A stretch of DNA of 64,000 bases from a virus. Lineage: Duplodnaviria; Caudoviricetes. The translations under genes and the position numbers were made by a program. Location of the stretch: the IMG/VR virus record IMGVR_UViG_3300037424_000485, positions 64,001-128,000 of that record; one strand, given 5' to 3'. The notes under the pieces were generated by a model. That model had not been told where the DNA came from and did no database searches. It worked only from the letters and a program-made list of their open reading frames with translations. Position 1 is the first letter of the stretch, and every line of letters begins with the position of its first letter. Positions 4,491-49,593 of the stretch are shown here, piece by piece.

Positions 4491-5432
4491 ATGGATTCTG
4501 TATTAATTGTATGTAATGGTGCAAAACACTATGGCTTATCATCCACCATCGATCATGAAAATAGCCTTTTTGCCGATGGCGAGGTTAATGTTCGTATAAA
4601 AGACTCAGTAAGAAATAAAAAAATTACCATACTACAGGGGTTTGAGTTACCTAACACCCACTTGATGGAACTTATCATAACAATAGATGCTGCTAAAAGA
4701 AGTGGTGCTCAAGAAGTAAATGTCATAATACCCATGTTCCCTTATGCAAGACAGGATCGAGTATCGAATAGTGGATGTCCTATATCAGGCCGTGTAGTAT
4801 GTGATATGCTCAATGCTGTCAATCCTGATAGGGTTGTATGCTTTGACCTTCATGCAGATCAGATACAGGGATTTATGGGTAATAAATGTCAATTTGACCA
4901 TATACCACTCACATCATTCTTATCATACCATCTAAAACGACACATACCAAATATAGAAACTTTCTCATTTTGTGCTCCTGATGCGGGTGCGATAAAAAGG
5001 ACATCAAAGCTGAAAGATATGTGTGGGGCCGTTGATATGTGTTTTATGAATAAAATTAGAACAAGAGCAAATGTTGTTGATTCCATACAGATCATTGGTG
5101 ATGTTGAGGGTAAGAATATAATACTTGTTGATGACATAATAGATACTGGAAATACAATTTTATCAGCAATAAAAGTGTTGAGAGATAATGGTGCTAATAA
5201 TGTAAAGACTGTGTTCAGTCATGGTATATTCTCATCACCTGCATATTCTAATCTAAATGGTGAGGATATATATGTTACAGATACAATGTGTATTAAAGAT
5301 AAAGACAAAAATGAACAATTCAAACCAAAAAATCTAAATATACTACCTATAAAGAATTTTCTATTAGAACTTATATCATGTATTAATGAAAAAAAACAAC
5401 TAGGAACTTTATTTAAAAATTGGTCAGAATAA
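4491..5432 (+). CDS. prs: ribose-phosphate pyrophosphokinase
   Basis: FADGEVNVRI, PMFPYARQDR, DLHADQIQGF, APDAGA, LVDDIIDTGNT motifs. Confidence 0.95.
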   Translation: MDSVLIVCNGAKHYGLSSTIDHENSLFADGEVNVRIKDSVRNKKITILQGFELPNTHLMELIITIDAAKRSGAQEVNVIIPMFPYARQDRVSNSGCPISGRVVCDMLNAVNPDRVVCFDLHADQIQGFMGNKCQFDHIPLTSFLSYHLKRHIPNIETFSFCAPDAGAIKRTSKLKDMCGAVDMCFMNKIRTRANVVDSIQIIGDVEGKNIILVDDIIDTGNTILSAIKVLRDNGANNVKTVFSHGIFSSPAYSNLNGEDIYVTDTMCIKDKDKNEQFKPKNLNILPIKNFLLELISCINEKKQLGTLFKNWSE

Positions 5433-5560
5433 TGAAAAATTTCTTATAAATAAGTATAGAGAGACTATAAGGTTGCTCCTTTAGATGATTGTTAATCATA
5501 CTAGGATAAGAACCTTTAATCTTATCCTATCTCTTTCAAATACCTATCAAGAGGTATATA

Positions 5561-6666
5561 ATGACGGTAATAACAACAGAAGAATTTATTAAAAGATCCA
5601 AAGAAGTGCATGGCGATAGATATGATTATAGTGTATCTACATATAATGGGTTTAGAAAACATGTGAATATTGTATGTTCTATACATGGTATATTTAAACA
5701 AACCCCTGTTAAACATTACAGTGGTAATGGTTGTCATAAATGTGGACAAATCTCTTCTAATAAAAAAACACCAAAACAACAGAAGATTTCATAAAACAAG
5801 CATCCGTTAAACACAATAATAAATATAACTACATGTTGGTCGATTATATTAAATCATACAATAATATAAAAATAATATGCCCTGTTCATGGTATATTTGA
5901 ACAAACACCTAGAAGACATCTTAACGGTGGGTGCTTGAAATGTGGTATAGATATAAGAACAAAAACAACGGATATATTTATAAAAGAATCTATTATTATA
6001 CATGGTGATAGGTATGATTACTCATTAGTTGAATATATAACAGCTCATATTAAAGTTAAAATTATATGTTTGGTTCATGGTGTATTTGAACAGACACCCA
6101 AACTACATCTTAGATCGTCTGGGTGTCCTATGTGTTTGGGTATATTTATTGAAAGATATAATATTAACAATATACCTATATATCAAACCTATGTTCAACA
6201 ATTAGAATTATATGAAGATATTAGAAGATCATCTTATGATAAAAATATCCTTGAGATAAGATGCACTTATTGCAACAAATGGTATATCCCAAAATTAAGT
6301 CATGTCCAGACACGATTAAAAGCTATATATGGAAAAATAAAAGGAGAAAGCAGATTTTATTGTTCCGATGGATGTAAATCTAACTGTGATTTGTATGCAC
6401 AGAGTAAATATCCCAAAGGACATAAAATAAATAAACACTCAAGAGAAGTACAGCCACAACTAAGAAAATTAGTATTAGAAAGAGATAATTGGACATGCCA
6501 AAAATGTAGCAGTGATAAAGATTTACACTGTCATCACTACGAAGGCATAGAAATAAATCCTGTTGAGAGTGCTGATATAGACAATTGTATTACTCTTTGT
6601 AAAAAATGTCACAATGCTGTTCATAAACAAGATGATTGTAACATGAGAAGGAATAAATGTAAATAA
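5561..6666 (+). pseudogene. frameshifted HNH endonuclease with repeated Cys/His N-terminal modules (subtype A)
   Basis: ORFs 5561-5794 and 5833-6666 share the module CxxHGxFxQTPxxH...GC; adding one A to the A7 run near 5762-5768 joins them. Confidence 0.75.
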
Positions 6667-6669
6667 TGA

Positions 6670-6789
6670 CAACAATACAAAACAAAAAGTATAGTTGTGC
6701 TTCCACTGACGAATTTTATTAGTGATATTATATTATGTATAGATAACCAGAGACAATTTGGTAAAATGTTCAAGAATTGGTCTGAGTAG
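6670..6789 (+). pseudogene. displaced homologous copy of the prs 3' end
   Basis: Translates QQYKTKSIVVLPLTNFISDIILCIDNQRQFGKMFKNWSE*, ungapped 18/39 identical to the Prs C-terminus; no start codon for the segment. Confidence 0.9.
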
Positions 6790-6792
6790 AGG

Positions 6793-6821
6793 TTTACATA
6801 TCTACTACATACATGTATAGT
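6793..6821 (+). promoter_or_regulatory. sigma70-like promoter
   Basis: TTTACA-17 nt-TATAGT upstream of rnh. Confidence 0.55.
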
Positions 6822-6828
6822 GTAACAT

Positions 6829-7716
6829 ATGAAAACAACAATATATATAGATGCAAACAACCTAGCAATCAGATGTGCCTTTAGTCAGGATGTATATCAA
6901 GTTGGTTTAAATGATGATTATTATATAGATTGGGAGCATTGGAGCTATCTGGTATTCTCTAATATCTATAAAGCTCTCAATCATGTTACCAATTGTAATG
7001 AGATAATCTTGGCTGTAGATGCAAAGGTGTCATGGCGTAAAGATGTATGGTCTAGATATAAAGAGTCAAGGTCTAACAAAAGAGCCACAGGAAAACCTTT
7101 TGATTGGCCCTTATTCTTCGAAAAATATGCAGAACTACAAGAAGAATTTAAAAAACACTTTCCATTTAAAATATTAGCTATAGATAAGTGTGAAGCTGAT
7201 GATATTATTGGAGTTCTTGTTTTAAACAACCCCGAAAAATCACAAATTATATCTTCAGATAAAGATTTCATACAATTATATATTCCAGATAGGGTAAGTA
7301 TATACAGTCCTATGACAAGGACGAATCTGTTACATCCAAATACAGAAATGTTTCTTGTAGAGCAGAGTCTTATAGGACAGAGCAAAGATGACATATTCAA
7401 TATAATCACACCATTAGACCATCCTATAGGTAAAAGAAAACCAGGATATGGGGAAAAAGCTTTAGATAAAACCATAGCTTATGGATGGAAGAGATGGCTG
7501 AAGGATAAAAAACTAGAAGAGAGGTATGAATTTAACCGCAATCTTATGGATTTCAGGCGTATTCCAGAGCCTATTAAAGAAAATATTATCACGGCGCGTG
7601 AGAAATACGAAACACCGCATCCAGAAAATATTTACAAATTTTTTAAAGAGCATCATTGGCCTGAGTATCTTGAAAATTTAACAAATGTTGAAAATAGATT
7701 ATATGAGCTGTATTGA
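6829..7716 (+). CDS. rnh: T4 RNase H-like 5'-3' exonuclease/flap endonuclease
   Basis: IYIDANNL, LAVDAKVSWRK...YKESR, CEADDIIG, IISSDKDFIQL, LIGQSKDDI motifs. Confidence 0.85.
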   Translation: MKTTIYIDANNLAIRCAFSQDVYQVGLNDDYYIDWEHWSYLVFSNIYKALNHVTNCNEIILAVDAKVSWRKDVWSRYKESRSNKRATGKPFDWPLFFEKYAELQEEFKKHFPFKILAIDKCEADDIIGVLVLNNPEKSQIISSDKDFIQLYIPDRVSIYSPMTRTNLLHPNTEMFLVEQSLIGQSKDDIFNIITPLDHPIGKRKPGYGEKALDKTIAYGWKRWLKDKKLEERYEFNRNLMDFRRIPEPIKENIITAREKYETPHPENIYKFFKEHHWPEYLENLTNVENRLYELY

Positions 7717-8612
7717 TGAAAATAACCTGGGATAATATAGATAAATTTTATATTACACCATCTGGAAATTTTAGATATAATAATGTAACATACGAATTAA
7801 AGAATGAGTGTGAATATTGTGGCGATCCATATTTTACAGCAAAAAGATTAGGTAATAATAAATGCTGTTCTAGATCTTGTATATCAAAAATAAATAGCAT
7901 GGGTGAAAAAAATACATTTTATGGTAAAACACATTCAAAAGAATCTTTAGAAAAAATGTCAGGTATTAATCATCACATGTATGGGAAGAAACACACAGAA
8001 GAAACACTAGAAAAGATATCAAAGAGTAGTATAGAATGGCATAGCAATAATAAACACCCTATGCTTGGAAGATATGGTTTAAAAAATCCTAATTGGAAGA
8101 ACGGATATCATAGTAATAATATACCATCGTATAATGTATATTCACATCAGTTAGAGCCATTTGAGAAAACAAGAAGATGTGCTGATGATGAAAATATATT
8201 AGAGGTAAGATGTACATATTGTAATAAATGGTATATTCCTAATAGAGTAAGTGTTAGTAATAGGATACTATCTATCACAGGATATCATACCGGGGAGAAT
8301 AGATTTTATTGTTCTGATGAATGTAAAGGAAGTTGTGATATTTTTAGACAAAGAATAAATCCAAAAGGATATAAGACTAATAATTATAAAAGAGAAGTAC
8401 AGGCACAACTAAGAAAATTAGTTTTAGAAAGAGACAACTGGACATGTCAGAAGTGTAATAATATAGAAAATTTACACTGTCATCACTTTGAGGGTATCGA
8501 AATAAACCCAATTGAAAGTGCTGATATAGACAATTGTATTACATTATGTAAAAAGTGTCATAAAGAAGTACATAAACAAGATGGCTGTAATATGAAAAAG
8601 AAAAGATGTTAA
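7713..8612 (+). CDS. HNH homing endonuclease with NUMOD3 motifs (subtype A)
   Basis: YGKTHSKES / YGKKHTEET motifs plus the family C-terminal HNH module. Confidence 0.85.
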   Translation: MMKITWDNIDKFYITPSGNFRYNNVTYELKNECEYCGDPYFTAKRLGNNKCCSRSCISKINSMGEKNTFYGKTHSKESLEKMSGINHHMYGKKHTEETLEKISKSSIEWHSNNKHPMLGRYGLKNPNWKNGYHSNNIPSYNVYSHQLEPFEKTRRCADDENILEVRCTYCNKWYIPNRVSVSNRILSITGYHTGENRFYCSDECKGSCDIFRQRINPKGYKTNNYKREVQAQLRKLVLERDNWTCQKCNNIENLHCHHFEGIEINPIESADIDNCITLCKKCHKEVHKQDGCNMKKKRC

Positions 8613-42322: not shown

Positions 42323-43177
42323 TTAATTGCATTTATTTCTTCTCATATCACAGCCTTTTTGCTTGTGTATTATATTGTGACATGCTTTGCATAATGTAAT
42401 ACAGTTATCAATATCAGCACTTTCAATAGGATTTATTTCTATCCCTTCAAAGTGGTGACAGTGTAATTGGGCATTGATATCACTACATTTTTGACACATC
42501 CAAATGTCTCTTTCTAATACTAATTTTCTTAATTGTGGTTGTACTTCTCTAGACGTGTTAGTTTTAAACCCTTTAGGATATACTTTTTGACCATATGTTC
42601 CACAAGATTTTTTGCAATTGTCAGAGCAATAAAGACTATTATCACTTGTATAATTTCCATTTATTGATAATATTCTACTAGATATGGACATATTAGTAGG
42701 CTTAAAATACTTACCACAATATTTGCATCTTACCTCAAGTGCTACGCCATCATCAGCCAATCTTGGCTCTTCTTCCATTGTTAGCTGATGAGCATATGTT
42801 TCGTATAATGCATGATATTTGTGATATTGTTTACACTTATTCTTTATATAATCAATATTATCAGTACGATATTGTTTACTTTTTTTCTTTATATAATCAA
42901 TATTATCGGTACGATATTGTTTCTTATATAAAGAAATGTCTTTTTTGTTGTCAATATAATATTGTTTTTGATATAACGAAACGTCTTTTTTGTTGTCAAT
43001 ATAATATTGTCTTGACTTCTCTATAATATCTTCTCTATTGTTAATATAGTGCTGTTTTCTACATTGTTTACAATTAAAGTTATGACCATCTTTTGCTGAT
43101 TTAGATATACCAAATTCATCAATAGATTTTATTTCATTACATTTAGTGCATTTTTTGGTATAAATATGGATAGACAT
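42323..43177 (-). CDS. HNH homing endonuclease (subtype B), antisense to the operon
   Basis: YYIDNKKD and YRTDNIDYIK tandem repeats plus the family HNH module. Confidence 0.85.
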   Translation of the reverse strand: MSIHIYTKKCTKCNEIKSIDEFGISKSAKDGHNFNCKQCRKQHYINNREDIIEKSRQYYIDNKKDVSLYQKQYYIDNKKDISLYKKQYRTDNIDYIKKKSKQYRTDNIDYIKNKCKQYHKYHALYETYAHQLTMEEEPRLADDGVALEVRCKYCGKYFKPTNMSISSRILSINGNYTSDNSLYCSDNCKKSCGTYGQKVYPKGFKTNTSREVQPQLRKLVLERDIWMCQKCSDINAQLHCHHFEGIEINPIESADIDNCITLCKACHNIIHKQKGCDMRRNKCN

Positions 43178-43200: not shown

Positions 43201-44076
43201 GTGGTTAGAAACCCATTAGCTATTAGCGTAGCAATGGGTTTTGTTATTTCTATTAGTATTTATATAAACTGGTTTACATTTCTGTTATTTTATAGTATTC
43301 TATATATAATATATAAAACAAGGAGAATTATATTGAACGTAAATATTGATAGCTTTAAAAATTTGTTGTTAAAGGGAACTCTTAATTATTCCTCATCGAA
43401 TATTGGCTTTACTGTAGATAAAGAAAGGATAAGAGTTGGTATGCGTGGAGATAATTATGTGGTTATCTTAAAAATGAATAATGATTTAATCCCAGATGTA
43501 AAAGGAGAAGCATCATTTTATTTTGACGAACCAAGTAACCAAATACGAACCCATTTAGATTTATTATCTGACTGTGAGAATGTAGAGATTGGTATTAAAG
43601 ACAATCATATTATTTTAAATGCGGATGGGCAAAAAAGTGTTATTCATTTCTGTTCTCCAAATTTAGTACCAACTTTTAGCGGTTCAGGCCCAAAAACAGA
43701 TGGCGTACATGTGTATGATGTAAAGATAAGTCATGAGTGGATGTATAATCTAGATAAAATTCAAAAAATAGCTAGTAAATTTAAGAAGATATATTTTGTT
43801 GTTAAGAATGGTAAAATATATATTGAAGCAACTGATAAAACAAACAGCTACTCTAATGGTCTGACATTCGAGCTAGGATCTACTGACCTATCAGATACAA
43901 TTATGTGTTTCGATTTTAAACCATTTTCCAATGCATTTAAGGTATTGGGGGATAGATATGAGGAATTCACCATGTCTGTTAATTATATAGAAAAACTGAA
44001 TGCAGGTATTATATCCTTTATTAATGAAGACGGAAGTGAAAAATATTTCATTTTAAGCAAAGATGATATAGATTAA
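43201..44076 (+). CDS. probable sliding clamp (gp45/PCNA-like); likely TTG start near 43334
   Basis: About 250-aa two-domain beta-rich protein next to the clamp loader genes; AGGAG RBS before LNVNIDSFK. Confidence 0.55.
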   Translation: MVRNPLAISVAMGFVISISIYINWFTFLLFYSILYIIYKTRRIILNVNIDSFKNLLLKGTLNYSSSNIGFTVDKERIRVGMRGDNYVVILKMNNDLIPDVKGEASFYFDEPSNQIRTHLDLLSDCENVEIGIKDNHIILNADGQKSVIHFCSPNLVPTFSGSGPKTDGVHVYDVKISHEWMYNLDKIQKIASKFKKIYFVVKNGKIYIEATDKTNSYSNGLTFELGSTDLSDTIMCFDFKPFSNAFKVLGDRYEEFTMSVNYIEKLNAGIISFINEDGSEKYFILSKDDID

Positions 44077-44085
44077 AAATAAATG

Positions 44086-44114
44086 TTGACATATTATATC
44101 ACATAGGGTATAGT
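44086..44114 (+). promoter_or_regulatory. strong sigma70-like promoter
   Basis: TTGACA-17 nt-TATAGT. Confidence 0.75.
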
Positions 44115-44218
44115 ATCTTTCATAATGAAGAGGATATGTTGTTAAAGTAAATAGGTTAGTCTCAATCCACGGATGATGATAGATCCAAAACTTTAACAAC
44201 ATAAACTCAAAAAAGGGG

Positions 44219-44247
44219 TTGACATTATAATTCATAAAGAGTATAGT
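44219..44247 (+). promoter_or_regulatory. strong sigma70-like promoter upstream of the Ubl gene
   Basis: TTGACA-17 nt-TATAGT. Confidence 0.75.
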
Positions 44248-44310
44248 GTCTATTAAATAGTAGAGGGATTAATATAGTCCCTAATTAAAGGTGTGTTAGA
44301 ATAATCTAAC

Positions 44311-44595
44311 ATGTTAATCAAAATTGTAAAAAGGAGATTTAAAATGGCTTGGAACACTGAAACTACCCATGTTGCAAATGTAACCACTATTACCGTAAAT
44401 GGCTCTCGTCAGTCACTTGATTCATCAGTGGGCGAATCTTTCGGTTCGACTGTTGTAGAAGCAGCAGTCGCCGCAAATATGGGCAAATTCCGCGTATTTC
44501 TTAATGGAGCGGAGATTGATCAGGCAGATGCACCCACCACTATTACAGCTGGCATGGCTATTGAGCTGAAGCCCTACGATGTAGCAGGGATGTAA
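44311..44595 (+). CDS. ubiquitin-like beta-grasp protein (probable start 44344, 83 aa)
   Basis: TITVNG...helix...FRVFLNG..I...ITAGMAIELKPYDVAG-M; ThiS/Ubl-like topology; AAGGAG RBS; E1 and JAB genes nearby. Confidence 0.7.
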   Translation: MLIKIVKRRFKMAWNTETTHVANVTTITVNGSRQSLDSSVGESFGSTVVEAAVAANMGKFRVFLNGAEIDQADAPTTITAGMAIELKPYDVAGM

Positions 44596-44859
44596 TGTCG
44601 TAAAATCAATGACTTATGTTGTTGAACATGAGGACATCCGATATACCATTTTTAGCAAGTTATAATACCAGAGATTTGTACAATCTCGTCCCATGAAAGG
44701 ATACTTTCAGGTTATCATATCTCCCTTGTTAGGTGTATCAAAAATGTCATTTTATTAGCTGTTGACTCTGTGCTGGTTGTCCTATCAATGTACAGATAGA
44801 TTAAGAGGGTAGAAGTAGGACTGATGACCCTTTTGTTAATTTAAAATGATGTCCTCTTT

Positions 44860-44900
44860 TAAGGGATATAGACCAAACGGTTTATATCCCTTATTTTTTT
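44860..44900 (+). terminator. intrinsic terminator
   Basis: TAAGGGATATAGACC-AAAC-GGTTTATATCCCTTA followed by T7. Confidence 0.85.
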
Positions 44901-44920
44901 GCCTTTTACAATAATAACTC

Positions 44921-44949
44921 TTGACAGATAATAATTTTTCTTATATATT
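44921..44949 (+). promoter_or_regulatory. sigma70-like promoter
   Basis: TTGACA-17 nt-TATATT. Confidence 0.7.
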
Positions 44950-45018
44950 AGGGGAAATGATTGTATTTTATTAATTATTAAAACTAAGGAAAAAATATGT
45001 GGACAACAGCAAGTAATA

Positions 45019-45414
45019 ATGGGAAAATCTCAAAAAAACATATGCCCTGAGTGTCATTGTGAGATTGGGGCTTTTCCTCTAACTTTTAAGGATGGAAGTC
45101 TGGGATGTGAAGAGTGTGTATTAGAGGATAATAAAAAGATAAAGTTTTCATGGTATCTAGACAATTATCCCTCTCTTGATATTGATGACTGCGAACGTCT
45201 TGATGAATATGGTGATATTACAAAACTAAAAAATAAATGGGTCACTATTATTTTTGGGGATTTTTTAAGTGCCTTGTGGTGTGCTGGATTTGATAATAAA
45301 CAAGATGTTGAAGATTTTCTTAAAGATTCCATCGAAGAAATCAATTCGGATTCAGATATAATCGTGTACCATTTTGGTAAGGTAGTTAATTGGAAATTTT
45401 CTATCGAAGATTGA
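45019..45414 (+). CDS. hypothetical protein with N-terminal Zn finger
   Basis: CPEC...CEEC. Confidence 0.55.
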   Translation: MGKSQKNICPECHCEIGAFPLTFKDGSLGCEECVLEDNKKIKFSWYLDNYPSLDIDDCERLDEYGDITKLKNKWVTIIFGDFLSALWCAGFDNKQDVEDFLKDSIEEINSDSDIIVYHFGKVVNWKFSIED

Positions 45415-45422
45415 AATAATCC

Positions 45423-45451
45423 TTGACTTTTAATAGTTATGGGATTAAGAT
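45423..45451 (+). promoter_or_regulatory. sigma70-like promoter
   Basis: TTGACT-17 nt-TAAGAT. Confidence 0.65.
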
Positions 45452-45498
45452 AGCCCAGATAGTATAAACAAATATTAATTCTAACTAAGGAAAATAAA

Positions 45499-46380
45499 AT
45501 GGTATCGTCAAAAACAGATGTTGAAAAACTACAAAAAGAGGTGTCTCTAGGAGTAGATGAAATCATCTCTGGTATCGATCTCACAGATATTCGTGCCTCT
45601 GGTATTATCATCACCGTAGGTGGAAAGCGCGTAAGGCTTGAGGTTGCTGAAGAGCAGATAGTTGAAGAAGATGCAATTCGTAAAGAACTGACTGAAAAAT
45701 TCAATGAGAAGCTTCAGTCAATTCGTAGCTTCGTTAATGAGAAGGCTATGAGTATTGAAAATGTACTCTCCACATATCGTAATGATTACGAAAAGAAAGA
45801 AAAAGCTCTTGATATTCGTCTTTCAGAGGCTAATATCATGCCAGACATTACACGCTCTCACTCATACAAGGGACTTTCTGTTGTTAAGGGTGGAGGGCCT
45901 ACTTATGCTGGTAGGGCTGATGTGTTTACATGGATCTATCGCACCACATATAAACCCACTAGGTGGAATGGCATTCCTCTAAATCAAAATTTTGCAAAGA
46001 AGATGATTACACCTATCATTATTGAACTTACAACTGAGAGAGATAAAATTCTTGCAATTCGTGTCAAAACATATATTGGAGATAGGGATTTTAGTCACTA
46101 TCACAACAATTGTTGGGGTGAATGGAAATATAGTGCAGAGATAGTAAAGACACCTGATGATATCCTACGTGTTTGTGAAACAGCATCTGCTGTACTTGAT
46201 AATATCAATGGAAGGTCTTTAGCTCAGAGTGCTCCGAATGGTTTGCCTAGAGCATCTACCGTTGAAAAAAATGTTATCAAAACAAATCCAGGGGCATCAA
46301 CTGTTGTATCGAGTAATAGAGCAGATGAAAGGGCCGGTCTTGATATGACTGTAGAACCTGATTCTGGATGGACAACTTGA
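45499..46380 (+). CDS. coiled-coil plus putative prokaryotic E2-like domain
   Basis: FSHYHNNCWG (H-x-H...C-x-G), then a helix and LDNIN; sits between Ubl and E1. Confidence 0.5.
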   Translation: MVSSKTDVEKLQKEVSLGVDEIISGIDLTDIRASGIIITVGGKRVRLEVAEEQIVEEDAIRKELTEKFNEKLQSIRSFVNEKAMSIENVLSTYRNDYEKKEKALDIRLSEANIMPDITRSHSYKGLSVVKGGGPTYAGRADVFTWIYRTTYKPTRWNGIPLNQNFAKKMITPIIIELTTERDKILAIRVKTYIGDRDFSHYHNNCWGEWKYSAEIVKTPDDILRVCETASAVLDNINGRSLAQSAPNGLPRASTVEKNVIKTNPGASTVVSSNRADERAGLDMTVEPDSGWTT

Positions 46381-46490
46381 TTAAAACATAAGGGGTCGAA
46401 ATATACCCCTTATAGTAAGGTATGGATATCTTGTCTAATAATAATAATATTTCTGAAAATAGTTGAGTTCTTTTATTCATTAAAAACTTC

Positions 46491-46518
46491 TTGACTATAC
46501 CTAAAAATATGGTATATT
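46491..46518 (+). promoter_or_regulatory. sigma70-like promoter (extended -10)
   Basis: TTGACT-16 nt (ending TGG)-TATATT. Confidence 0.6.
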
Positions 46519-46555
46519 GTCTTTATAGATTAAATATTAACAAAGAGAGGGATAT

Positions 46556-47167
46556 ATGTCACTAGGTGGAACGCTTTATAATCGTCAAGAAACATTAGGT
46601 CTAAATGTTGATCAATCCGTGGTTTGTATCGGCGCGGGTGGAATTGGATTCCATGTAACCAAAATGCTTGCAATGTCTGGTATTAAAAATCTGTTTGTGT
46701 TTGATACAGACATTTTTGAAGAGCATAATCTTAATCGTATCGACTGTCCTACTGATTGTATTGGTATGAACAAAGCTGATGCTATCAAGATGTTCGTTGA
46801 GCAGATGCGTCCAGATTGCTATATTAAAGCATTCCCATATCAATTCTCTCCATCTTTTGTTAATATGGCAGAAATTGATTGGATTGTTGACTGTACCGAT
46901 GTTTTTGAAGCACAATTGAAACATCAGGGATTTGCAGATCAATACAAAGTAAAGTACCAGAAAGCTGGATATGATGGAGAATCAATGTCCATCAATAGCA
47001 GAGTTGGCACATGGGATACAGGTAATACTCCTGATGGTTATCAAATAACCCCCTCATGGGTTGTTCCTACTATTATTATTGCGGCTTTGGCTGTTGGGAA
47101 AGTTCTGAAATATACAACTGGTGAGATGGGTTGTAATTTAAAAGACTTTTATACATTATCAGATTAA
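46556..47167 (+). CDS. ThiF/E1-like adenylating enzyme
   Basis: YNRQ, IGAGGIG, FDTDIFEEHNLNR, NKAD, VDCTD. Confidence 0.9.
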   Translation: MSLGGTLYNRQETLGLNVDQSVVCIGAGGIGFHVTKMLAMSGIKNLFVFDTDIFEEHNLNRIDCPTDCIGMNKADAIKMFVEQMRPDCYIKAFPYQFSPSFVNMAEIDWIVDCTDVFEAQLKHQGFADQYKVKYQKAGYDGESMSINSRVGTWDTGNTPDGYQITPSWVVPTIIIAALAVGKVLKYTTGEMGCNLKDFYTLSD

Positions 47168-47185
47168 TACAATAGAGGAATAACC

Positions 47186-47650
47186 ATGGTTAATATTACA
47201 TGCAAGAAAATACAGACATATGTAATCAGTGCTGATGAGATTTACAATCTCATCTTAGATAAATATGATGCTGTTGATGGTAAATTTGGACAATTGTTCC
47301 TATATAAAGAGACTGTATCTACAGTTATTGATAAACAAGATTTATTTGAATTTTCTATTGTTCTTAATGATAATGAAAAGGCGTTTAAATTACCACCATA
47401 TAACACTGGTGGTGAATGTATATCAGTAAATAAGGCGTGGGAAGTTCCAGCAACTCCTTTATCTCTGAACGAACCATGGACAGTTACACCTATTAAACAT
47501 GTACATCCTGAAAGTAAACCATTTATTGGTGACTCATGGACAACAGAAAAACCCAGCGATCTCCCCATTATAGACGATATTTATTCTGTTGTGGATAATG
47601 ATCTTCCTATCGTGGATGATGATTTTGAAGAGGCCGGTGGTTCACAATAA
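47186..47650 (+). CDS. hypothetical protein with acidic low-complexity tail
   Basis: GAGGA RBS; lies between E1 and JAB. Confidence 0.55.
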   Translation: MVNITCKKIQTYVISADEIYNLILDKYDAVDGKFGQLFLYKETVSTVIDKQDLFEFSIVLNDNEKAFKLPPYNTGGECISVNKAWEVPATPLSLNEPWTVTPIKHVHPESKPFIGDSWTTEKPSDLPIIDDIYSVVDNDLPIVDDDFEEAGGSQ

Positions 47651-47676
47651 GTTATACAATAATATCAATACTATAG

Positions 47677-49140
47677 GTGGACATGATGGGATTGCGAAGA
47701 CAGAAATATAAAGGGATGATAAAAAATAGAAATGTAAAAAGTATCTTGGATCAATTTAAAGAGAGGGATATCGATAAAGGACGAGATATGTATATCCACT
47801 CAGATTCATGTATTAAAAATGACTGTAATATCCCCCTAAATGTAAGAGGTGGTTTGCTTGGTAGAGTATTTACGCCTAGTGTGGTATATACCCCACCAGC
47901 TCCCGATTACTGGCAAGCACCAGAGCCAAAAGAGATTAAATATCATGCTCTAGCTCCACAACAACATGATGTTATTTTTACTCAATTGGTAAAAGCAAAA
48001 ATCGATACTCTGATGTCTGCATATCCTAACATTGAGTGGCTGGTATATCTGTCTGGAAAGAGAGAGGACAATACAACATATATTAACGATTTGATTGTTC
48101 CTGTTCAGAGTGTTACCAGTGTCCGTGTTGATAAAATTGAACTTGAGAATATGGGATCTCTTCCTATTGTTGGTGTTATGCACTCACATCATGGTATGGG
48201 AAACGGTTTCTCAGGTACTGATGATATGTTTATCAATGCAAACCATCTTCTGTCTTTGTGTATCTCACATGGTGGTATCAACGGTCAATTTCGATGGGGT
48301 ACTCCTGAAGGTGATCAGGTTATGATCAAAGCATCTGTAAAAATTGAATACAGCTTTGGTTTTGATGCTGAAGAATTTAAAAAGCATTGTAGTGAAAATA
48401 TCTCAGAAATTACATACGCTAATCACGGACGTAATTTTGGATATCTCACCAATACACGAAATGCATATTGTAACATTATGAATCCATCACTTGATGATTT
48501 GATGGAAGAATTATCTGATGGAGATACTGATGGAATCGGATTCATGCATCATGGATCTACAGATATTGCCAATATTCCTAACAATTTTATCATACCGCCT
48601 GATAATTGCCCTTCTTGTAATAGTGTAGATATTGTCGATAGCGGGGATGGATGGTTCTGTAGTGTATGTGGTGATGAAGGATATCATTTCGAGGAAGGTA
48701 GCATTGGATTCAATGATGTCCCTGTTGATGAGCATCGATATTTTGATAATATTTCAGAAAGACCCAAAGAAAGCGTCAAATCTAATACATATCCTCTTAA
48801 ATCAGAGGATTTTGAAGAGGCCGAGAGTTTAGGATATATCCAATGTGAGAGGTGTTTATCCCATTTCGATAAAATTGATGTGTATATGGGAAATCATCCA
48901 ACAGATCATATTGACGGAGATCCTGAGTGTTCTCTGTGTAAGGAGTGTTTCGTAATATTGAAATATCATCCTAAAGCATCAACAGTTCCATTTACCTGGA
49001 CTACATCAAAGGAAGTAGAGGTAATTACAGACGGTGTTCAATGTGCTAAGTGTGATTCAATTCATATTGTTGATAACATTGTTAGCACTCCAATAGGTAA
49101 TATCTGTAGAGGATGTTATAATCTTTGGTTAAGAAGGTAA
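47677..49140 (+). CDS. JAB/MPN+ metalloprotease with C-terminal Zn fingers
   Basis: IEWLVYL..., GVMHSHHGM...FSGTDD (E...HxH-x7-S-x2-D); CPSC/CSVC/CERC/CAKC tail. Confidence 0.85.
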   Translation: MDMMGLRRQKYKGMIKNRNVKSILDQFKERDIDKGRDMYIHSDSCIKNDCNIPLNVRGGLLGRVFTPSVVYTPPAPDYWQAPEPKEIKYHALAPQQHDVIFTQLVKAKIDTLMSAYPNIEWLVYLSGKREDNTTYINDLIVPVQSVTSVRVDKIELENMGSLPIVGVMHSHHGMGNGFSGTDDMFINANHLLSLCISHGGINGQFRWGTPEGDQVMIKASVKIEYSFGFDAEEFKKHCSENISEITYANHGRNFGYLTNTRNAYCNIMNPSLDDLMEELSDGDTDGIGFMHHGSTDIANIPNNFIIPPDNCPSCNSVDIVDSGDGWFCSVCGDEGYHFEEGSIGFNDVPVDEHRYFDNISERPKESVKSNTYPLKSEDFEEAESLGYIQCERCLSHFDKIDVYMGNHPTDHIDGDPECSLCKECFVILKYHPKASTVPFTWTTSKEVEVITDGVQCAKCDSIHIVDNIVSTPIGNICRGCYNLWLRR

Positions 49141-49179
49141 TAATGTTTTAAATATAGCAGAAAATGTGAGGAATTATTT

Positions 49180-49593
49180 ATGGTTTATAGGGATTCTGAA
49201 GGGGCCGAATGTAATTTGTTACAGATGGTGAAAAGAGAGCCAGAATGGGCGGCATCCAGGGTGATCGAAGGCGATCAGGCTATTAAAAGAGTGTCAGAAT
49301 TAGAGCACACGCTTAAAGAGATAACAACAGACCTACATGATGTGAGATCAGACCTACATGATGTGAGATCAGATCTACATGATGTGAGATCAGATCTATT
49401 ATTGTTTTGTTTATTCATTATCTTCAATGGAAAAGGAGGATTGATGAACATCATAAGAGTAGGTGGATTTATCGCTTGCTTTACAATTTTAATCTTAGGA
49501 GTTTATGACCACAATCTTGTAGAGGCATTAGGATGGGGAGCTGCTTCCCTTTATATGGGATGGGTAGTTGCGAAAGGGTTTCTTAAAGCATAA
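49180..49593 (+). CDS. hypothetical membrane protein with internal heptad repeats
   Basis: DLHDVRS x3 and hydrophobic C-terminus. Confidence 0.5.
   Translation: MVYRDSEGAECNLLQMVKREPEWAASRVIEGDQAIKRVSELEHTLKEITTDLHDVRSDLHDVRSDLHDVRSDLLLFCLFIIFNGKGGLMNIIRVGGFIACFTILILGVYDHNLVEALGWGAASLYMGWVVAKGFLKA
49330..49398 (+). repeat. 21-nt tandem repeat (about 3.3 copies)
   Basis: GA(C/T)CTACATGATGTGAGATCA directly repeated with no spacers. Confidence 0.95.

Follow-up and report, generated by a model that had tools for sequence, protein, structure and literature searches.

Protein conjugation by ubiquitin-like modifiers (Ubls) has so far been characterised in prokaryotes only in cells, either as a host weapon against phages, as in the Bil operons and type II CBASS, or in operons with no known role, as in Bub. 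The Bil operons (BilABCD, types I and II, operon class 6d of Iyer et al. 2006) encode a bacterial ISG15-like anti-phage Ubl conjugation system, in which separate Ubl, E2, JAB and E1 genes are brought together in one cluster with no E3. Here we describe a virus-borne cassette of four such genes, encoding a Ubl tag, an E2-like protein, a minimal E1 and a JAB peptidase, between positions 44311 and 49140 of a 64,000-nt stretch of DNA (the window; GC ~32%) that corresponds to bases 64001–128000 of the 204,431-bp linear IMG/VR virus record IMGVR_UViG_3300037424_000485 (completeness estimate 85%). A first-pass annotation of the window had placed all four genes on one strand, and each was recovered at the position it gave, on the + strand. 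On balance, we consider it probable that the cassette is a virus-encoded, self-contained Ubl conjugation module built from a new E2-like family and a minimal E1 without a catalytic Cys. Ubl conjugation as such is known; what would be new is its ownership by a virus, together with the E2-like family and the minimal Cys-less E1.

Like the cassette, the Bil operons carry a Ubl with a conserved C-terminal Gly that is sometimes followed by a short tail (Ala98 in BilA, 2–9 aa in 12 homologues; 10.1101/2023.09.04.556158; PMC10557695), a JAB peptidase, which removes that of BilA, and an E2 whose loop from strand 4 to the catalytic Cys is variable (PMC10557695). In contrast, BilD is a large E1 of IAD-AAD-CYS architecture that has a Zn site as well as a catalytic Cys (PMC10557695), whereas the E1 of the cassette consists of a single 203-aa domain with neither; BilA contains one or two ubiquitin-like domains, whereas the tag is ThiS-like; and in the C-E-H-H motif of BilB the His follows the Cys, whereas the E2-like protein places H-Y-H before the Cys and adds a 110-aa coiled-coil N-terminal part. 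Bil is also a host-encoded defence, whereas the cassette is virus-encoded and resides almost solely on viral contigs. The Bub operons (6E/DUF6527; PMC11601596) likewise hold E1, E2, Ubl and peptidase genes together, the JAB peptidase processing the Ubl precursor, and their minimal, homodimeric E1 lacks a catalytic cysteine and carries an invariant Tyr in the crossover loop, as the E1 of the cassette does in its presumed one. However, the Bub E2 relies on a Ser together with His/Asp or Lys/His and works through oxyester intermediates, as opposed to the invariant Cys found here, and the Bub proteins are fused (Ubl-E2, JAB-E1 or E2-E1) rather than encoded by four separate genes. Bub comes in addition with the BubE serine protease (DUF6527), for which no search was made at the cassette. 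The type II CBASS proteins Cap2 and Cap3 share with the cassette an E1 adenylation domain similar in sequence and a JAB partner (Cap3), but Cap2 is a single E2-E1 fusion that conjugates the CD-NTase itself in the absence of a free Ubl, and neither a CD-NTase nor an effector was present at the cassette. Finally, the tail assembly protein I (a Ubl) and tail protein K (JAB and NlpC/P60) of phages lambda and T1 (Iyer et al. 2006) represent a phage-borne Ubl and JAB pair; in contrast to the cassette, which lies in a replication block together with E1 and E2-like genes, this pair belongs to the tail-assembly cluster, is unaccompanied by an E1 or E2, and contains a Ubl fused to a further domain. A search of the open literature revealed no phage-encoded set of Ubl, E2, E1 and JAB, the nearest cases being the lambda/T1 pair, the sole phage association of Ubl and JAB described in that literature, and E1-like genes in Asgard viruses. 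The cassette is Bil-like in gene content and Bub-like in its Cys-less minimal E1, and is a member of neither system, because the BilD architecture, the BilB motif, the Ser-based E2 of Bub and the Bub fusions are all absent.

A scan of IMG/VR with the single E1 protein returned nothing, whereas the scan with an E1 alignment returned 80 loci, 54 of which held a full-length E1 of the family (31–57% identical to that of the window); the cassette genes in these loci were called with hidden Markov models of the four proteins. In 47 of the 54 loci, tag, E2-like, E1 and JAB genes followed one another in this order on a single strand, indicating that the arrangement is not due to chance; conserved synteny in other phages, a check proposed in the first-pass annotation, was thereby observed. 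Three of the other seven loci were cut at the contig end, three held only E1 and JAB, and one (L056) lacked only a tag match in the gene-cluster analysis. Clamp-loader and sliding-clamp genes lay directly upstream in most loci, with the clamp gene cluster upstream in 46, and three further metagenome contigs, with E1s 74%, 56% and 46% identical to the window's, encoded a clamp loader, a clamp, a small protein, a ~300-aa protein, a ThiF protein and a JAB protein. In the most divergent group (L050–L057) the cassette was retained as a unit in a different genomic context. The identities of the tag, E2-like protein and E1 to those of the window were correlated across the loci (rho 0.57–0.77), a correlation that shared ancestry alone could cause. 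Among cellular genomes (one per species, 185,579 prokaryote species), the complete cassette occurred only on two short contigs of metagenome-assembled genomes (MAGs). One is a 27,887-bp contig listed both as an IMG/VR virus (L010) and in the 'Candidatus Izimaplasma bacterium HR2' MAG (L087), and the other is a 6.3-kb contig with the full cassette that was assigned to a Thermoplasmata MAG (L088). Composition-based binning of viral contigs probably accounts for both, and neither is reliable evidence of the host.

Related gene sets of other composition were also seen. Three loci (L023, L024 and L038, at ~4500–8400) contained the family E1 and JAB without a tag or E2-like match despite 7 kb of upstream DNA, and carried before E1 three other conserved genes encoding a protein of ~264–274 aa, an 85-aa CxxC protein and a protein of ~177 aa; these loci may represent a variant system. 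More distant viral contigs (L062–L085) showed the reversed order, with JAB followed by a larger E1 (~235–260 aa), and no match to the tag or E2-like profiles. A cousin cassette was present in MAGs assigned to cells, including a 631-kb contig of an Omnitrophica MAG (L091:6070-8588) as well as L089, L092 and L093. It encodes a 79-aa tag ending in K-A-G, a 200-aa protein with conserved-looking Cys and His residues, an E1 of 311 aa whose tail is rich in Cys, and a JAB of 219 aa with the site H-S-H-H...S-S-Q-D-D.

The 83-aa small protein had been described as beta-grasp-like and ending in DVAG-M, and structure prediction of 44344-44595 agreed with the former. Its start is most likely the ATG at 44344 rather than position 44311, because an AGGAG element lies 7 nt upstream and the homologues begin with M-x-W-N. 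The alignment-based AlphaFold model (49 sequences) had a predicted local distance difference test (pLDDT) score of 84 and the order strand-strand-helix-strand-strand-strand of a beta-grasp fold. A Foldseek search of the PDB with this model gave beta-grasp proteins in all of the top 50 rows, the first being ThiS (3cwi, 29% identity, probability 0.99), followed by ubiquitin, SUMO and NEDD8, and a language-model feature search placed the tag among viral ThiS-like clusters. No Pfam family, ThiS (PF02597) included, matched the tag at E≤1, and the profile of the tag family recovered no ThiS or MoaD among PDB sequences at E≤10. Since ThiS is unseen by sequence profiles, the tag family is new at the sequence level.

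The C terminus of the tag reads D-V-A-G-M, with Gly82 encoded at 44587-44589 and Met83 at 44590-44592. Across 45 distinct homologues this end followed the pattern [YF][DE]x[AVP]G with a tail of 0–6 aa: 22 ended at the Gly, 19 carried 1–6 extra residues and four ended in Ala or Ser. The [AVP]-G pair stood at or near the end in 41 of the 45, the penultimate residue not being Gly, and Gly82 was conserved in at least 90% of the 49 aligned sequences. Such a conserved Gly at the end, with disposable tails of varying length, marks a modifier whose activation takes place at the C terminus. At a distant locus with E1 and JAB matches only (L061:5596-5970), a 124-aa open reading frame (ORF) ~1 kb upstream ends in V-N-G-E-S-V-S-H-E-V-V-G and may be a diverged tag missed by the profile.

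The presence of a ThiF-type E1 with intact adenylation motifs, as predicted, was upheld. The protein matched PF00899 with 85.4 bits (cut-off 28.1, E 4e-24), and all of its adenylation residues, namely GxGGxG, D50, N58/N60/R61 (NLNR), K73 and D112-C-T-D115, were invariant across 45 family members. Over positions ~11–135 the family profile matched the adenylation domains of Uba1 (1e-15), MccB, UBA5, ThiF, MoeB, Cap2 (1e-11) and BubCD (3e-8), and the E1-E2 models of PADLOC matched the protein at 3e-15. More than 300 metagenomic relatives had the same size of ~200 aa. The sole invariant Cys in the 45 sequences was C113 of the DCTD motif, and no CxxC (zinc) pairs were found; E1 therefore contains no candidate catalytic cysteine, a feature that the first-pass annotation had not noted. 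The presumed crossover loop includes the invariant residues W153, G161, Y162, P166 and S167, of which Y162 might, by analogy, play a role like that of the crossover-loop tyrosine of the Bub E1.

A ThiS-like tag next to such an E1 raised the question of a sulfur-carrier pathway, in which E1 would adenylate the ThiS-like protein, a persulfide would convert it to the thiocarboxylate, and the sulfur would go to a thiolated nucleoside, a cofactor or a small molecule required by the phage, with JAB trimming the carrier or releasing adducts. The sulfur-carrier and SAMP systems (ThiS/ThiF, MoaD/MoeB, CysO/Mec+, QbsE/QbsD and SAMP/UbaA/JAMM1) indeed share with the cassette a small ThiS-like beta-grasp protein, a small ThiF-type enzyme and a JAB trimming peptidase, and in such pathways Mec+ acts as the JAB peptidase for CysO and QbsD for QbsE. 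The E1 has the small size of ThiF and MoeB and matches ThiF models, ThiS is the nearest solved structure to the tag, and a Cys-less E1 would be expected where no E1 thioester is needed. Nevertheless, we regard this pathway as improbable. The tag ends in A/V/P-Gly and not in the Gly-Gly typical of ThiS and MoaD, and the sulfur-carrier and SAMP systems have no E2-like partner, so that the conserved protein with a predicted UBC fold and an invariant Cys described below has no place in the known pathways. They also come with linked sulfur donors or acceptors, whereas no rhodanese, TtuA-type ATP_bind_3, ThiG or MoaE family was found in the 204-kb record, though host enzymes could serve. The tag's own promoter-like sites and terminator suit a stoichiometric modifier as well, if weakly.

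The first-pass annotation had called the 293-aa protein E2-like on account of the motif HYHNNCWG, which occupies residues 200–207 (46096-46119; Cys205 at 46111-46113) and proved to lie in a loop with an invariant family motif. The family comprises 95 representatives at 50% identity among 1.84 billion proteins, none of which carries a Pfam domain or a name. F198, H200, Y201, H202, C205, W206 and G207 of this loop were invariant or nearly so (among 67 sequences, Y201, H202 and C205 were invariant and H200 near-invariant), and the motif F-x-H-Y-H-x(2-10)-C-W-G, with its variable spacer, was found in 47 of 48 full-length copies from related loci. In the model built from the 67 sequences (pLDDT 85.5, core >90), the coiled coil is followed by a short helix, a four-strand meander (126–191, with a small insert), a 27-residue loop and a helix (219–232). 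Cys205 is thus predicted to lie between strand 4 (183–191) and the helix, which starts 14 residues after the Cys; about the same Cys-to-helix spacing (~14 residues) is seen in canonical E2s. Outside the coiled coil, the structural matches were all E2, UBC or RWD domains and spanned residues 112–261. Foldseek returned the Cap2 E2-E1 protein of the Cap2-CdnD complex and many E2s among its top, weak rows, and the nearest named shape cluster of the ESM Atlas was Prok-E2_D. Furthermore, a conserved His upstream of a conserved Cys is the active-site signature of bacterial E2s (Iyer et al. 2006, PMC1779556). This assignment rests on the predicted fold and on context, not on sequence homology; that the 293-aa protein combines a UBC fold with a catalytic Cys seems quite likely to us. 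Of the earlier proposal of a UBC fold with the Cys at the catalytic position, the part that stood is structural, with the matches solely to E2, UBC and RWD domains and the Cys in the predicted loop after strand 4, whereas sequence profiles lent it no support.

Several observations weigh against a conjugating role of the 293-aa protein and against the conjugation module as a whole. No UQ_con or Prok-E2 Pfam match was obtained for any of the 67 members among the families listed, a PF14460 search of the genome gave nothing at E≤10, and a PDB sequence search with the E2-like profile gave only coiled-coil noise. The H-P-N of canonical E2s is replaced by H-Y-H, the structural scores were only moderate, the H-x-H...C pattern could equally be a metal site, and the putative catalytic position of Cys205 was read from a predicted model. 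Judging from its sequence, E1 lacks the catalytic Cys of all thioester-forming E1s (Uba1, UBA5, BilD and Cap2). At the level of the tag, the closeness to a sulfur carrier and the four homologues ending in Ala or Ser instead of Gly point in the same direction.

In a rival account, the 293-aa protein would be a substrate, an adaptor or a metalloenzyme with H200, H202 and C205 as ligands. The tag would then be passed on from the E1 adenylate without an E2, as in archaeal SAMP/UbaA and Thermus TtuB/TtuC, or E1 would act on the conserved R-x-G-[ILV] element in the tail of the 293-aa protein, as Cap2 does on CD-NTases. The absence of any sequence-level link to an E2 family, the moderate scores, the plausible metal triad, the lack of a Cys in E1 to pass a thioester on and the resemblance of the tail element to the A-G end of the tag all agree with this account. 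Still, we hold it to be unlikely: the matches outside the coiled coil are all to E2, UBC or RWD domains and cover the whole domain, an invariant His just before an invariant Cys after strand 4 is the bacterial E2 signature, no fourth conserved metal ligand was present among the invariant columns, and the divergence of the 293-aa protein tracks that of the tag most closely (rho 0.77).

The tail of the E2-like protein (~274–293; 46318-46380 in the window) contains the conserved R-x-G-[ILV] followed by ~10–14 mostly acidic residues and a near-invariant Trp 2–6 residues from the end; in the window it reads R-A-G-L...G-W-T-T, and R-A-G-L resembles the V-A-G-M end of the tag. It could serve as a docking peptide or as a second substrate of JAB or E1. 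Two loci (L045:5231-6973 and L058:5231-6973) had two tandem E2-like paralogues (329 and 248 aa) before E1, both with H-Y-H...C-W-G, the second without the C-terminal Trp tail. In another (L011:5954-6859) the gene was split into two ORFs of 146 and 103 aa and was intact in the otherwise matching L009, L012 and L013; the split could be an assembly error or a recent pseudogene. Fold searches with the whole E2-like model (PDB, AFDB clusters) were uninformative, being swamped by the N-terminal coiled coil, and an AFDB search returned only one uncharacterised family member (33% identity). A feature search of the Atlas with residues 112–270 gave tail-fibre-like noise, and the Atlas model of the protein was poor. 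A pattern scan of genome contigs detected no relative, and a complex prediction of E1 with the E2-like C-terminal domain scored 0.00, the partner not folding without an alignment, so that it speaks neither for nor against an interaction.

The JAB/MPN+ site HxH-x7-S-x2-D reported by the first-pass annotation was complete, and E120 and H169-x-H171-x7-S179-x2-D182 were invariant in four orthologues. The protein scored 24.9 bits against Prok-JAB PF14464 in one search and 27.9 bits in another (cut-off 25), and its C-terminal extension was variable, the orthologues ranging from 341 to 546 aa. Removal of the terminal Met83 by JAB is plausible by analogy with BilA, a direct precedent, from which the native C-terminal Ala98 is removed, exposing Gly97 (PMC10557695). 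Because JAB is kept in every locus although the Gly is already the last residue in 22 of the 45 distinct tags, trimming cannot be its only conserved job; that it persists where half of the tags require none speaks for a further action of JAB on conjugates.

From what the analysis shows, namely the predicted folds, the motifs for catalysis, the conservation of the terminal Gly and the tight joint inheritance of the four genes, we infer a conjugation cycle of the following form. The 83-aa ThiS-like tag would be made as a precursor with a one-residue tail, from which JAB would cut off Met83 and expose Gly82, as BilC does on BilA. E1, probably a homodimer like ThiF, UBA5 and BubCD, would then adenylate Gly82 with ATP, for which its residues are intact. 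Since a conserved cysteine is missing from E1, either Cys205 of the E2-like protein would attack the acyl-adenylate directly or the tag would be passed on through a non-cysteine E1 intermediate, a route in which the invariant Y162 of the presumed crossover loop would recall the Bub E1 tyrosine. The E2-like protein would transfer the tag to target lysines with no dedicated E3, possibly recognising targets through its coiled-coil N-terminal part or its variable H-Y-H...C loop. Reversal of the conjugates by JAB would explain its retention beside tail-less tags.

A single deep clade of uncultured T4-like phages has long harboured the module, which follows directly on the genes for clamp loader and clamp; its target could be a protein of the phage, of the host or of a rival phage. 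Tagging of host or phage proteins early in infection had been put forward in the first-pass annotation as a conjectural means of counter-defence, host takeover or interference with co-infecting phages. With the same chemistry, the module could mediate defence between phages by Bil-like tagging of the structural proteins of co-infecting rivals, resulting in superinfection exclusion. The Bil operons, the only characterised four-gene systems of Ubl, E2, E1 and JAB, tag the central tail fibre of phages and block assembly (10.1101/2023.09.04.556158; PMC11601596), and the different genomic context of the cassette in L050–L057 would fit such a role. We nonetheless find this role distinctly unlikely, since the proteins are not recognisably members of the Bil families and the fixed place of the cassette inside the replication block across a deep clade (E1 down to ~40% identity) is more suggestive of a core function of the lineage than of a shuffled accessory gene for defence. 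The position of the cassette after clamp-loader and clamp genes in ~46 loci is the only basis for a further idea, according to which the tag would be conjugated to the phage's own sliding clamp or to another replisome or late-transcription component encoded just upstream, a prokaryotic-virus counterpart of PCNA ubiquitination and SUMOylation in which a Cys-less minimal E1 would deliver the adenylate straight to the Cys in an E2 of a new family. This we treat as very improbable: the cassette is also found away from the clamp in L050–L057, so that the adjacency may reflect merely shared expression timing.

Our analysis suggests that, throughout a deep clade of large T4-like phages, a complete conjugation kit belonging to the virus occupies a fixed place beside the replication genes; if true, protein tagging in bacteria or archaea would also be put to use by the viral side. 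The unannotated E2-like family, with its H-Y-H...C-W-G loop and coiled-coil extension, was found here only on viral contigs and the two short MAG contigs. The E1, at ~200 aa one of the smallest, is Cys-less yet paired with a Cys-bearing partner and falls between the thioester mechanism of Bil and the oxyester mechanism of Bub. As a set of small, unfused proteins, the system lends itself to direct tests in vitro.

Table 1. Positions in the window of the cassette genes, promoter-like and terminator-like elements, and neighbouring genes.
Feature	Position	Strand	Basis or remark
Ubl tag, 83 aa, ThiS-like beta-grasp, ends D-V-A-G + Met tail	44344-44595	+	AlphaFold model, Foldseek, conserved Gly
E2-like protein, 293 aa; helical/coiled-coil N-terminal part (1-111), UBC-like domain (~112-261), disordered tail with near-invariant Trp	45499-46380	+	
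Minimal E1, ThiF-type adenylating enzyme, 203 aa	46556-47167	+	PF00899
JAB/JAMM metallopeptidase, 487 aa; core ~100-220, C-terminal extension with several CxxC zinc-ribbon-like pairs	47677-49140	+	Prok-JAB PF14464; start codon putative
Promoter-like TTGACA-17-TATAGT (11/12)	44086-44114	+	Consensus match only; before tag gene
Promoter-like TTGACA-17-TATAGT (11/12), second	44219-44247	+	Consensus match only; upstream of tag gene
Terminator-like hairpin, 15-bp stem and T run	44860-44893	+	Pattern match only; after tag gene
Promoter-like TTGACA-17-TATATT	44921-44949	+	Consensus match only; upstream of 131-aa ORF, then E2-like gene
Promoter-like TTGACT-16-TATATT with upstream TG	46491-46518	+	Consensus match only; before E1
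131-aa protein with CxxC...CxxC pairs	45019-45414	+	Lineage-specific insert, outside conserved core
154-aa protein	47186-47650	+	Lineage-specific insert
Sliding clamp, gp45-like	43201-44076	+	PHROG 223 DNA polymerase processivity factor, E 3.6e-9; neighbour conserved on the upstream side, given for context
HNH endonuclease	42323-43177	-	PHROG 144, E 9e-11; between clamp-loader region and clamp gene

The interval 44311-49140 contains six ORFs on the + strand, the four conserved genes and two lineage-specific inserts (Table 1). The 131-aa ORF was part of no conserved gene cluster across the loci, and both ORFs lacked a family match and were absent from the relatives compared; the first-pass annotation had not recognised them as inserts. 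The Ubl, E2-like and E1 genes had each been assigned their own σ70 promoter; this remained tenable for the tag, with two sites, and for E1, whereas the site assigned to the E2-like gene precedes the non-conserved 131-aa ORF. In total, 40 promoter-like sites, all of them consensus matches only, were found compared to 26.5 ± 4.9 in shuffled sequences. The two strong promoter-like sites and the terminator-like hairpin would suit a tag made in excess over its enzymes, as far as such weak pattern matching can suggest. An Rfam search of 43900-49400 gave nothing credible, and the gap 44596-45018 held no small ORFs of note.

The surroundings of the cassette consist of T4-like replication genes, with clamp-loader subunits and the sliding clamp immediately upstream. 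The DNA polymerase of the phage is ~28% identical to those of T4-like cyanophages, and neither the nucleotide sequence of the cassette region nor the E1 or E2-like protein had a match among 50,697 deposited phage genomes, among which the clade has no cultured member. From this polymerase identity, the T4-like neighbours and the absence of a deposited match, the source is an uncultured, deep-branching, large T4-like phage. DNA of the region was found in sediment metagenome runs, and no RNA run was listed for it. Two neighbouring genes showed repeats. The HNH endonuclease contains repeated Y-Y-I-D-N-K-K-D-like segments and looks like a free-standing homing endonuclease insertion, and a 137-aa ORF on the + strand directly after the JAB gene (49180-49593) encodes a threefold tandem repeat of D-L-H-D-V-R-S followed by a hydrophobic, membrane-like C-terminal half.

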